Positions 8,716 to 62,046 of a stretch of 64,000 bases of DNA are shown here, piece after piece. The stretch comes from Eledone cirrhosa. Its lineage: Eukaryota. The first letter of the stretch is position 1. Each line of letters opens with the position of its first letter. Under the pieces are notes generated by a model. That model did no database searches. It worked only from the letters and a program-made list of their open reading frames with translations, and was not told where the DNA came from. The position numbers and the translations under genes are program-made. Location of the stretch: the NCBI GenBank assembly GCA_964016885.1, contig OZ024740.1, positions 258,850,001-258,914,000 on the forward strand, written 5' to 3'.

Positions 8716-8888
8716 AGTTGAGATGGAGGGTCTGTGGTTTATATATATATATATATATATATATATATATATATATATATATATACACTATATAAATACA
8801 CTATATATATATACATATATACATATATATATATATATATATATATATATTTATATATATATATATATTTATTAAAATAACAGATTAA

Positions 8889-8939
8889 AGTTTAAGCAAA
8901 GAATCGCTGCTTTCACCCTTAACGGGATCTTCTGAAACT
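8889..8939 (-). ncRNA. Type-I hammerhead-like motif, family A (CAGAAGA core)
   Basis: Reverse complement of 10974-11024. Confidence 0.6.
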
Positions 8940-9312
8940 AACAAAGTCAATCTGTGAACGCAGAAGTGAATATTTCAAAAAACGTTGCAACCGGAGGAAG
9001 ACAGGAAGACGATACTTTGGTTTGTGGAAACGTTCCCTGGCAAAGAACGGGAAAAAACGAATATAATACGTCATTATTTGGAGCATGAAAAACAATTACA
9101 CGCAAAGACAAAACCACGTTTATGGTATAAAAGAAGTCGTAGACTAATATTCTATTAGGTGGTTCATAGAGACGTTCTCTGGCAATGGACGGAAAAAAAC
9201 GAAGATAATACGTTATATGTGGAACGAGGGAGAACAATTGCACGCAAAGACAAAACCACGTAAATGGTATAAGTGAAGTCGTAGACTAAAATTCTAAATA
9301 GATCCCGACACA

Positions 9313-9950
9313 TTATATGGTATACCCACCATATAATATGGAGGTGGCCACACCATTAGCTAAGATCTTTCTCTCCCTTATTATGAAGCATCTTCATTAC
9401 ACATAAATATAGTAAAATTTTTAATAGAAATACCGTTAAAATTTCTTACTCTACGACTCCAAACCTTGCACATAAAATCACAGCTTAAAATTTAGCTAAA
9501 CTACCTAGCCGTAGGAACACGTGCAACCCTGTAGTTAGTACTAACTGTAATTGTAGGAATCGGGTTGACTGCCCCCTATCCGGGAAATGTCTCTCTAGTA
9601 ACATTGTCTACAAATGTAAGGTTGAAACACCCACGTCCCGTAGGGCCTACATAGGGTTAACCGCCAATAGATTCAAGCAGGGCCTTTACATGCATACCCA
9701 TTCTTTTCGTTACCCTTTAAGAAGGAATATGACGTCACTTTCAGCTTATATCTGGAGTCTAAAATATAAGGTACACTGAGAGATGCTAGCTAGGGCTAGA
9801 TCGTATAACGGAAATAAAAGACCATGTGACCTCTGTACCACTGAGGCCATGGAAATACTCTACGCCAAAGACCACATCTGAAACAAAAGATCTGAGGCAA
9901 TTTCGGCTTGTAAATATAATTGCACAAAACCTTCCTGTATTACAGCACCA
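9313..9950 (+). pseudogene. Degenerate PLE linker + GIY-YIG endonuclease (Naiad-like CxCx5C type)
   Basis: Translatable blocks CNCRNRVDCPLSGKCLSSNIVYKCKVET, YIGLTANRFKQ, HSFRYPLRRNMTSLSAYIWSLK and CDLCTTE, with stops and frameshifts. Confidence 0.8.
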
Positions 9951-10973
9951 CATTATACCCTAACGGATAGTACGAACAATACGCGGATATTTTACGTCTT
10001 GATGTGGTATCTAAGTATATGTTATGTTTATACCATTATTTATTTGTATATGTAAGTATATATTACCTGTATGTTTTGTGAAGGTACGTATACTTTCTCG
10101 TACGTATATTTGATTGTATATGTTATGGCGTATATATTATATATTCTGGTACATATGCTTTTGGTTATGTGTATACGTGAGTTTTGCGTCTGTGTGAGTA
10201 TGCGGGTTCGTACGTATGTAGGGTGTGTGTATATGTGTACTTTGTGTTGGTTGACGTTCGTCTCCGAACATATGTGTATTTACTTGTAGGTATGTGTGTG
10301 CGCTTGTTATATACGTATTTATTTATTTATATGCATTTATTTAATTATATGTATACACACTCACACACACACACACATATTTTTATGTGTATTTGGTGTA
10401 TACATTCGTATGCGTGCGGGTACAGGCGTTGCGTGAGTTCTGTATGTGCGTGCGGTTTTTTTTTGTGTACGTGCGTGTATTTGTATACCTATGGCGAGTG
10501 TTTCCGCTTATGCTTATGTATGTACGTATATGGATGCGTGTATGTATTCATTTAATTTCAATTTCCTCTGTATTTTACTTACTTATTCTTAACTCGGAAG
10601 CCAAGAATCATTCGGTTTCCTAGTTAGAATTTTAGTTTACGACTTTGCTTATACCATTTACGTGGTTTTGTCTTTGCGTGCAATTGTTCTCCCCGCTCCA
10701 CATATGACGTATTATCTTCGTTTTTGTCGTCCATTGCCAGAGAATGTCTCTATGAACCACCTAATATAACTACGACTTCTTTTATACCTTAAACGTGGTT
10801 TTGTCGTTGCTTGTAATTGTTTTTCACTGCTCCAAATATTGACGTACTATATTCGTTTTTTCCCGTTCTTTGCCAGGGAACGTTTCCACGAACCAAAGTA
10901 TCGTCTTCCTGTCTTCCTCCGGTTGCAATGTTTTTTGAAATATTCACTTCTGCGTTCACAGATTGACTTTGTT

Positions 10974-11024
10974 AGTTTCAGAAGATCCCGTTAAGGGTGA
11001 AAGCAGCGATTCTTTGCTTAAACT
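10974..11024 (+). ncRNA. Type-I hammerhead-like motif, family A (CAGAAGA core)
   Basis: agttt CAGAAGA tccc-gttaa-gggt GAAA gca-gcgattctt-tgc TT aaact. All three stems pair. Confidence 0.65.
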
Positions 11025-11345
11025 TTAATCTGTTATTTTAATAAATATTTGCTCTACGGTTCTTTTCTTATATATATTTATATATATATATATATATATA
11101 TATATATATATATATATATATATTGACGTTCGTCTCCGAACATATGTGTATTTACTTGTAGGTATGTGTGTGCGCTTGTTATATACGTATTTATTTATTT
11201 ATATGCATTTATTTAATTATATGTATACACACTCACACACACACACACATATATATATATATTTTTTATATATATTTTTATGTGTATTTGGTGTATACAT
11301 TCGTATGCGTGCGGGTACAGGCGTTGCGTGAGTTCTGTATGTGTG

Positions 11346-59355: not shown

Positions 59356-59444
59356 GCATATCTGACGAGATGTCGATAAAGAATTGAGCCCCATCACCTT
59401 GATCCTACCCTGAGCTGATCGATATCGAAACAATTGTAATATGC
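59356..59444 (+). ncRNA. Type-I hammerhead with long stem II, family H (diverged inverted copy at 59216-59303)
   Basis: gcatat CTGACGA gatgtcga...tcgatatc GAAA caattg TA atatgc. All stems pair. Confidence 0.85.
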
Positions 59445-60192
59445 AAATAAAGTTTGTACATATGCTGCTAAACTGATATATATATATATATACGTAGGTA
59501 AATAGAAACCTCAGCGTAAGGAAGCTGTTAAAACAGCAAAATGTACCTCGAAGGACAGAATTCAGCGGCTCAGAGAGAGTTTACTCGAAATATTGATAGG
59601 AAGGAAGAATTAGAATGGATGAGAAGAGATCACAGACATTAAAATACGCTCATCAGATTTCAGACCACCTGCAGTTTCAACGATTGAACTGAAATGACTG
59701 CGTAAAAACAGAGAAATATATATCTTCGTTGGTATAATGTTTATGTTGGGGCAGGTCAGAGAAAGAGAGAAAAATGATGTGCGTCTACTCGACCTCAAGT
59801 CGTCGCAAGACAGGAAGAACAATGTCATTGTAAGAGGAAGTGGCCTGTAGAGGGGAGACGGGAAGAAAGCAAGGCAAAAATGAGAGGGAGGGAGAAAAAG
59901 AAATAACGAAAGAACGGCGAACAGAGGAAGATTTCTGTCCTTGGAGGTAAGGTTTTACCCAACGCCGTTTCGAAGGCATTTTGCTGTTTTTACAGCTTCC
60001 TTACGTCGAGTTTTTTCCTTTTTCCAACGAATTCAAATAGACTCGCGTTTCAAAACTCGATATTCGAATCAATTTTGTTTATATATATATATATGTGTGT
60101 GTGGGGGGGGGGGGGGGGGGGTTAAAAATAAACAGAAATAACAACACAATCGGTACAGTATATGGAAGGGATATATGTATATATAGATAGAT

Positions 60193-60460
60193 ATAGATAT
60201 TGGAAAATGTGTGAAATCCTTGGTACAGTTAGGTATATTTGAAAAAAGGAAAAGAATGACTTCACTTGTAGTTCTAAACAATTTAATTTTATAATATTAC
60301 AATTTTACAATTTTGTTTTGTAGATCTAGTAGATCTACAAAATTGTAAAATTGTAATATTATAAGATTAAATTGTTTAGAACTACAAGTGAAGTCATTCT
60401 TTTCCTTTTTTCAAATATACCTAACTGCACCAAGGATTTCACACATTTTCAAATATCTAT
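60193..60460. mobile_element. Fold-back element, centre 60329
   Basis: Near-perfect arms of about 135 bp. Same family as 42117-42540. Confidence 0.8.
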
Positions 60461-61059
60461 ATCTATATCTATATATAATATAAAAAGAAAGATGTTTATT
60501 GGCTGGCTGGCTGGCTAGCTGGCTGGTTGTATCACACGAAAACTACACAGACACACACAAATACATATACACACATCAAAAGAAAGAGACACACGGGCCG
60601 TTATACAGAGAGGGATACAATTAAAGTGTTAAATATTCAGAGGAGAGAGAGAGAGAGAGAGAGAGAGAGAAAGAGAGAGAGAGAGAGAGAGAGAGAGAGA
60701 GAAGAGAGAGAGAGAGAGAGAGAGAGAGAGAGAGAGGGGAGAGAGAGAGAGAGTGACGCCCCACAAAAGTAGCAGTTGAGGGTTTAACAATATTGCGTTA
60801 GCTTTCATAAAGTATTTGATTTTGCAGCACAAAGAAAAATTGATACTATTTGAAATTAATCTACCCTTCAGCTTTTATCCATATACTACTTACATACATT
60901 ACTAACGAAGCAGCACTTCAAAAGCAACGTTATGCGATATATTGGTGTATTTCAGATGACGTCCTTTGGAGCTGAAAAGGATCATACTGACTATGGTTAT
61001 TTCACATTTAAAATCGAAGGCCAATGCTACCATTTAATCGGCAGTTTACCTAATAAAGA

Positions 61060-61213
61060 AGTTTTATGATTGTTTTTTTTTATGTCTCTCTCACACACAC
61101 TCACACTACGGTCTCACCTCATACCAGAGAAAACAACAGTATTTTATGTGCTGTCTAGTATGAGGTGAAACCGTAATGTGTGTGAGAGAGACATAAAAAA
61201 AATCATAAAACTA
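61060..61213. repeat. Short inverted repeat containing an HHR 3' half (GAAAccgTA)
   Basis: Arms 61060-61124 and 61159-61213. Confidence 0.6.
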
Positions 61214-61661
61214 GTGTGTGTGTGTGTGTGTGTGTGTGTGTGTGTGTGTGTGTGTGTGTGTGTGTGTGTGTGTGTGTGTGTTTATAATTATGTAAATTAT
61301 ATATTTATAGAAGTGCTTATATCTGTATGTGTATAACGACAGTGACACACACCTTTTATATTTTATCATGTTTTGTCTACCAAGAACAAACTGTCTGTTA
61401 GTATCTCACTTGCAAGTGTATATATCAAAACTCTGGTAGTTTTATATACATCACACCACTGGTGTATGTTTATACACCAGGCCACCACTGAGAACATGGG
61501 GCTGCATAATAGTAAGTGTTTATATAGTAAGGCAGACATTGATAGCACACATACTTATGTACAGACTCACACACATATAACTACATATATATGTGTGTGA
61601 GCGTGTGTGAATGTGTGCAAGTATATATATATATATATATATATATATATATATATATATA

Positions 61662-62046
61662 TATCACAGAAAAAAAGAGAATCAGTGTTGCGAGGAATGG
61701 AATTTATTGGTCATATTACAATCGTTTCTCTGGCGACCAGCTCGAGGCACGATCGATATGATGACCGAACCTAACTCAGAAAATCGCAAGGTCCTCAAAT
61801 ATGTCTTGATTCTACGAAGCAAATTTTCCTATCTGAGGACCTTGCCATTTTCAGAGTTAGGTTCGATCATCAAATCTATCGTTCTTCGAGCTGGTCGCCA
61901 GAGAAACGATTGTAATATGTCCAATAAATTCCACTCGTCGCAACACTGATTCTCTTTTTTTCTATGATATCATACTCTGCTCTATGAGAGCATCGAGTGC
62001 TCATACGTCCTACCGCATACGGACGCTTTAAGCATCCAACACCAAT
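61662..62046. mobile_element. Family F inverted-repeat element, HHRs at 61710-61805 (-) and 61830-61921 (+), tail 61971-62046
   Basis: Composite of the two arms: gacatat CTGAGGA...GAAA cgattg TA atatgtc. (TA)n flanks. Confidence 0.8.

Follow-up and report, generated by a model that had tools for sequence, protein, structure and literature searches.

In the available portions of PMC8557442, the Hydra clade of Penelope-like elements (PLEs) is described by a C-terminal endonuclease, a CxCX5C linker, RW[K/R] and DKT motifs, a hammerhead in the pseudo-long terminal repeat (pLTR) and (TA)n targets. Such elements often carry a tail at one end only, for which endonuclease resolution or self-priming has been proposed (accessible sections of PMC8557442 and PMC3846280), and the former source states the formation of the tail and of the asymmetric inverted ends as open. 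For PAc, a Poseidon element of the green anole, in vitro experiments in the sections of PMC11167929 available to us revealed two internal start sites of the reverse transcriptase (RT) that bound the tail, and both target strands were cut and extended. Here we describe inverted-repeat elements from a 64,000-nucleotide (nt) stretch of the Eledone cirrhosa genome (contig OZ024740.1 of assembly GCA_964016885.1; C1:258850001-258914000; hereafter the window), together with further copies of their families elsewhere in the genome, whose ends lie 5-10 nt before one or other of two tandem copies of a bulged stem motif between the hammerhead and the start codon.

The host genome (3.0 Gb) is rich in (TA)n, and the window contains many inverted-repeat elements with their 3' ends pointing outward into (TA)n and with hammerhead cores 50-110 nt upstream of the element ends. 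Arms that carry the tail are called long here, and arms that end before it short. The CxCX5C linker was present in the endonuclease fragments of families A, B and C in the window and in 120/120 aligned proteins, of which 118 have RW[K/R], 118 have DK[T/S] and one has DKG, while an RW[R/T/I/L]-type motif was found at the N-termini of families A, E and F. One family C locus (L317) holds a 656-amino-acid open frame with RWR, DKT and YRDD, followed by a YVG endonuclease motif C-terminal of the RT, and RWR, DKT and YRDD recur in nearly all of its 119 relatives; a CCHH motif was not seen when this one translation was inspected by eye, with no alignment to canonical PLE endonucleases. Neither this frame nor the three endonuclease fragments of the window had a Pfam match to RT or GIY-YIG, and the RT-endonuclease assignment is made from motifs. 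Hammerhead CUGANGA…GAAA cores were found in families B, C and E, with a variant core in A, and in families D, F, H and I the GAAA half alone was located within 130 nt; Rfam returned no hammerhead among the matches listed (150 of 176), all of them spurious and of microRNA type. A TA run follows the tail end in 180/200 long arms of families A-F. By the motif marks described for the clade, we assign these (TA)n-inserted elements to the Hydra clade of Penelope-like retrotransposons, families D, H and I being placed there by the shared stem motif and nearby open reading frame (ORF) fragments alone.

Short ends before the first stem

The ends were sampled from 1.2 Mb of contiguous genome and from loci obtained by family searches. 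Since the query of one family search contained the tail, the sample from that search favours long arms; the other family searches used upstream DNA or the endonuclease protein. Family A was sampled from the contiguous blocks, its upstream words being too common for a family search. Each arm was called against the nearest long arm, and positions were counted from the first base of the stem.

In the initial annotation of the window, short arms of eight families were proposed to stop about 3-5 nt upstream of the stem-loop at the tail, and all of the junctions that it listed are present, either where it had placed them or at most a few bases away. The sharpness of these ends holds genome-wide: 236 of 274 called non-tail ends from ten families (A-F, K, Lf, M and O) overlap positions -11 to -4 from the stem, an interval chosen post hoc with the data already seen, and 38 more arms were uncalled and are excluded from the 274. 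Under equal use of the TA words between -38 and the tail end, 6-22% of the ends would be expected there. The usual end site is a UA near -7/-6. The proposed offset was too small, because a value of 3-5 nt corresponds to the far limit of a junction that is itself ambiguous; the final base that is necessarily element-derived lies mostly at -7 to -10, and the first copied base about 6-10 nt before the stem. Families K, Lf, M and O had been found from the motif alone, yet they follow the rule (7/8, 12/16, 6/6 and 5/5 ends, respectively). In short-read contigs from one sample, loose (TA)n ends were located at -5 (family E) and -3 (family A) from stem 1, which are the far edges of ambiguous junctions, and these contigs reject a long-read assembly artefact as the source of the ends.

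Several families were left out of the 274, namely H (old, with decayed flanks), I (counted apart), J (palindromic double hits), P (reference contaminated by an inserted short interspersed nuclear element, SINE), Q (probably a false motif) and N, T, U, V and X, in which the short arms were unsampled. In family I, 27 of 48 arms were short, and 24 of those 27 share one junction. In families R and W, also outside the count, the automatic pick was an inner ACTC, and placement by hand showed 6/7 short arms ending at -10 to -3 from the outer, better-paired stem. For family H, the ACTC at 59182 that had been offered as an example is unpaired, and the true stem starts 18 nt further on (59164). Many family H ends (loci L092-L120) adjoin (CT)n or (CA)n rather than (TA)n, which suggests that microsatellites have turned over in this old family or that its range of targets is wider.

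A UA at -8 to -5 is common to most families, and each family offers 8-19 TA words, of which one narrow interval is used. Family O, with TG at -7/-6 and a TA at -3, has 5/5 ends at -8 and passes over the TA. Likewise, TA occurs in family C at -6 and at -2, yet the ends gather at -9 to -5 and ignore the TA at -2, while the longest TA words of family A, which lie inside the tail (+13 and +23), take only 2/35 ends. Distance to the stem, as had been predicted, is therefore a better description of the ends than the nearest TA word. The junctions themselves carry additional marks. In family C, position -7 is A in 11/40 short arms compared to C in 51/51 long arms, a change that fits a mispaired primer set two bases further in, and in family D TC|ATA junctions were found in 9/60 short arms compared to 1/47 long arms. 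The hammerhead was also considered as a ruler and was rejected because the distance from its GAAA to the stem ranges from -48 to -79.

A second stem, the tail and the pairing of arms

Full-length family C copies, found via the endonuclease protein, do not stop at the tail end but carry a second motif copy beyond it, followed by the ATG, and the same arrangement is seen in a K-type copy. The resulting prediction was then searched in other families as a CTC 2-9 nt after the tail end. In family F (20 rows), the sequence runs on into GCT(C/G) at 5 loci, with the GAGC 3' half and the ORF start next in most of them. One continuation past the tail end is shared by 87 of the 100 matches listed for family E and by 94 of the 100 listed for family A (of 275 and 636 matches, respectively, with many family A loci listed twice), and eight loci of E, eight of A and one family B copy show the complete stem 2 motif followed by the ORF or its start. 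Stem 2 was thus seen in six families (A, B, C, E, F and K), always in full-length copies elsewhere in the genome, and is absent from all copies in the window. In C, K and the metagenome relatives described below it was found without a CTC-distance requirement, and the completed motif and the ORF were not built into the search.

Tailed arms end at -11 to -4 from stem 2 in 107/111 called cases (families A, B, C, E and F; of the 153 long arms in these families, 32 were uncalled and 10 continue into stem 2). Since the same offset is found before both stems, we take the tail to be the interval that separates the two motif copies. When the termini are plotted against the stem, the ends are bimodal, as the two-peak prediction of the initial annotation required. 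Its second start at the far end of the tail corresponds to a real class of ends, but it had missed the second stem, absent from tailed arms, that would set the tail end. At one locus (L336) a family F tail is joined straight to stem 1 and the tail of family B, at the point where the F stem 2 would begin.

The motif consists of RCUC, an upper stem, usually a 2-nt bulge on the 3' side, GAGY and an unpaired RCU. Distant relatives with 35-44% protein identity were available from 77 marine metagenome loci, of which 55 have leaders of at least 100 nt, and 28 of these leaders contain two motifs, spaced 55-83 nt from stem to stem. Their leaders hold 70 motifs compared to 0.63 in shuffles, a density 32-fold that of the ORFs. 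Among 93 instances chosen irrespective of pairing, 84 have a Watson-Crick pair 5 (C-G in 54 and U-A in 30; shuffle mean 46, maximum 63), while other bulge sizes give a Watson-Crick pair 5 in 2-17 of 93; pairs 6 and 7 are Watson-Crick in 63/93 and 53/93 (shuffle maxima 41 and 39), and TA begins at -6 in 46/93. The 3' copy ends of the relatives lie 1-13 nt before a stem in 11/15 informative loci. By eye, the motif is also recognizable in several Hydra consensus sequences published in PMC8557442, from coral, sea cucumber and copepod, Hydra-1_Ajap having two copies.

The arms are strictly paired, as 121/130 outward-facing inverted pairs consist of one long and one short arm, whereas independent choice of arms would give about half, and in 3 of the 5 long-long pairs one of the tails concerned is internal and not terminal. 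At family C loci (L302-L330), the arm with the endonuclease gene is short-ended in 19/27 elements and long-ended in 8/27, a mild bias. The inversion centres of mini-hairpins cluster by family (A at about -71 to -78 and three C copies near -72, at the 5' hammerhead core, D at -61 to -70, E at -167 to -178, F at about -160 to -180 and B at -193 to -197), which could reflect enzyme stalling or transcript 5' ends.

Probable priming at the stems and its alternatives

From these sequence comparisons, we consider it likely that each stem binds the reverse transcriptase and presents a single-stranded UA, 6-8 nt upstream, to a nicked (TA)n primer. The earlier proposal that the stem fixes priming 5' of itself stands as far as the constant offset in the genomic ends is concerned, from which we infer that the stem positions the RT. 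Judged from the genomic ends, priming before stem 1 would give the short arm, and priming before stem 2 would give the tailed arm, at which stem 2 would not be copied. The strict pairing of a long with a short arm suggests that a single RNA, by way of two enzymes, serves both cut strands with its two stems, and the sequences leave evenly balanced the proposal that one RNA loads two enzyme molecules, one per stem, with each cut target strand priming one complementary DNA (cDNA) and the two cDNAs joined head to head. With the two stems placed upstream of the ORF, a tandem or circular transcript would be required for the ORF to be copied; circular RNAs are reported for retrozymes in the available text of PMC7229834. 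The full scheme would be a clade-wide duplicated RNA element that loads two RTs, with each (TA)n strand priming at a fixed distance from its stem, complete insertions being short plus tailed, and hammerhead circles or tandem transcripts serving as template for the ORF. We offer this whole tentatively and rate its chances slightly below even.

A number of observations weigh against this account. Family G has a hammerhead core and no RCTC/GAGY-RCT stem, and it had already been suspected as an exception. Ends of family H are broadly distributed, with 14/27 non-long arms ending at -11 to -5 from the paired stem, and the 16 calls in family J are scattered from -39 to +13 and confounded by palindromes. 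In family A, 11/27 short ends lie at -11 to -8, at neighbouring TA-rich words, and several short ends of family E lie at -17 to -11, where TA-rich words sit; these secondary ends indicate that microhomology does shift the end site. Full-length leaders of D, H and I were not found, and for D a pattern search returned four rows at one locus, all simple repeat. For families A, E, F and B the search for stem 2 required a CTC within about 9 nt of the tail end, which makes the offset there partly a product of construction. Among the 55 leaders of the relatives, 14 have one motif and 13 none, and two of the six published Hydra consensus sequences showed no clear canonical copy by eye. Copies and relatives are not independent, so that p-values and shuffle controls are optimistic. 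Finally, the genomic ends alone are compatible with internal priming, RNA cutting or DNA cutting at the same offset.

Were the RNA cleaved a few bases 5' of each stem, with the enzyme starting at the new 3' end as in non-LTR (long terminal repeat) elements, the same two end classes and offsets would be predicted, and RNA-seq read ends are noted at the start sites in the available part of PMC11167929. Cleavage before stem 1, however, would strip the stems from the template, so that no specific binding feature would be left, and the Poseidon element initiates internally on uncut RNA according to the same excerpts; moreover, cleavage by itself does not yield the pairing of one long with one short arm. 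We regard this explanation as unlikely.

A little less probable again is that the motif acts in DNA, where the GIY-YIG endonuclease would recognise the hairpin in a cDNA intermediate and cut nearby, the ends being resolution sites. The tail was viewed in this way before, and the accessible sections of PMC8557442 attribute it to endonuclease resolution; those of PMC11167929 cite earlier work on tail sequence needed for endonuclease recognition, and the covariation is also compatible with a DNA hairpin. However, the target-derived base at -7 in family C short arms and the TC|ATA junctions of family D fit primer pairing, stem 1 stays uncut in long arms, and internal RT starts coincide with the tail ends in vitro (PMC11167929, in the part available). 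That the ends fall at any TA-like word able to pair with (TA)n, the stems being incidental, would account for the UA common to most families and for the secondary ends of A and E, but it is very improbable and already largely refuted by the one narrow interval used, by the family O ends that take TG and skip TA, by the longer TA words in the A tail that are hardly used, and by the recurrence of the offset before stem 2 and in distant relatives.

Features of the window

Coordinates of the elements are collected in the table below. In the tail of one family A copy, a different PLE is nested in the TA-rich loop (11079-13556), with a 557-amino-acid frame at 11217-12890 that gave an RT match and a weak GIY-YIG match; a relative 22-24 kb before the window start has one short arm and one arm with a 41-nt tail, without the Hydra motif. 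At 20838-20927 a lone B-type stem and tail stand between (TA)n runs without an upstream pLTR. The remaining contents include an LTR retrotransposon at 599-6103 (LTRs 98% identical, 1066-amino-acid open pol frame), which we take from its domain order to be of Ty3/Gypsy type, long simple repeats at 22205-28981 with a 29-bp minisatellite of about 130 copies at 24508-28326, and non-LTR reverse transcriptase gene fragments at 34093-34970, with weak Pfam matches below the cut-off. A high-copy short repeat that looks by eye like a tRNA-derived SINE occurs at 33028-33276, 42265-42745, 44398-44597, 47657-47853, 48107-48720 and 57905-58106, one copy lying inside the family P short arm.

Table. Stems, arm ends and coding fragments of the inverted-repeat elements, in window coordinates; offsets in brackets are relative to stem 1.
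Feature	Position	Strand	Associated features
Family A stem 1 (GCTC…GAGC-CCT), another long arm	6179..6227	+	tail end 6271
Family A short end, neighbouring copy	6300..6305	-	
Family A endonuclease fragment, Hydra-type CxCX5C linker	7872..8315	-	
Family A short end (junction -7..-3)	8865..8869	-	
Family A stem 1 5' half and tail start, partner long arm	11051..11068	+	tail split by nested 2.4-kb insertion, resumes ~13557-13610
Family B stem 1, long arm	13725..13747	-	tail end 13666
Family B endonuclease fragment, CxCX5C linker	13987..14658	+	
Family B short end	16407..16409	+	hammerhead core upstream at 16308
Family B stem 1, further long arm	16663..16685	-	tail end 16608
Family B short end	18585..18586	-	
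Family B stem 1, long arm partnering 18585 short end	18789..18811	+	tail end 18871
Family D stem 1	32692..32718	-	tail end 32655
Family D short end (-9..-6)	32966..32969	+	
Family C stem 1	36391..36413	-	tail end 36354; hammerhead core 36485
Family C endonuclease fragment, CxCX5C linker	37046..37783	+	hammerhead core next at 37800
Family C short end (-7..-5)	37865..37867	+	
Family E stem 1	45359..45386	-	tail end 45305; hammerhead core 45491
Family E short end (-8..-5)	47545..47548	+	
Family P stem 1 (family absent from the initial annotation)	47601..47653	-	tail end 47562
Family B stem 1	50176..50198	+	tail end 50266
Family I stem 1, long loop	50392..50477	-	tail shorter than in other copies
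Family I short end (-10..-5)	50691..50696	+	
Family E mini-hairpin stem 1	50891..50918	-	tail end 50837; short end 50995-50998 on +
Family F short end	51300..51304	-	
Family G, long and short arms, no RCTC/GAGY-RCT stem	51493..52364	.	hammerhead cores 51654 (-), 52194 (+)
Family D stem 1	54768..54794	-	tail end 54723
Family D short end	54916..54919	+	
Family H true stem 1, degenerate copy	59100..59164	-	
Family H short end, outlier at -26 from true stem	59475..59476	+	
Family F short end (-8..-4)	61661..61665	-	
Family F stem 1	61974..62001	+	tail end 62046

Comparison with described systems

The elements described here share with the Hydra clade, as presented in the available portions of PMC8557442, the inverted 5'-truncated copy, the often single tail, the pLTR hammerhead and the (TA)n target; tails of 30-40 nt are given there, in contrast to about 60-110 nt here, and those portions describe no stem motif at the tail. 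With PAc, going by the accessible sections of PMC11167929, they have in common an AT-rich target and two start sites bounding the genomic tail, which here are deduced from genomic ends; in PAc, sequence 3' of the start sites is required and a dimer is predicted. However, PAc belongs to a different clade, and its starts are located within the ORF, in an AC-rich stem-loop that is stated to be non-homologous to the target, whereas the starts here would lie in the 5' leader at a UA able to pair with (TA)n. For PAc, those sections describe no duplicated positioning stem, and no GAGY-RCU motif was seen by eye in its template. Inspection by eye alone suggested a candidate bulged hairpin on the 3' side of the second start site in PAc.

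A literature search, incomplete and with subscription journals and Repbase reports outside its coverage, returned no description of a duplicated positioning stem or of a fixed offset, at least in the parts of each source that were available, and such a stem is not mentioned in the accessible text of a retrozyme preprint (10.64898/2026.07.22.740005) or of the octopus repeat annotation (PMC13282606). The element class and two-site initiation are known, while a duplicated cis-element that appears to set both sites is undescribed in the literature searched. It amounts to a small, conserved, covarying RNA element with a numeric rule, a start about 6-8 nt before each of two stems; the motif offers an easy means of annotating a very abundant class of repeats, and a compact handle with which a telomerase-related enzyme could be made to start within an RNA.

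In twin priming of L1, two primers from one target give an inversion, and in long interspersed nuclear elements (LINEs) a 3' stem-loop marks the template. The LINE stem is found on the 5' side of the start and is itself copied, and there is no overlap between the inverted parts of L1; here, in contrast, each stem is on the 3' side of its start, and the same pLTR is copied in both arms. The parallel with telomerase drawn in the initial annotation stands as an analogy alone. PLE and telomerase RTs are sister groups (PMC8557442, in the part available), and in telomerase RNA a structure 3' of the template, with a short single strand between, affects template use, as given in the abstract of PMC6125678; telomerase, however, copies a short template repeatedly and has a 5' boundary, whereas copying in the elements described here runs up to kilobases.

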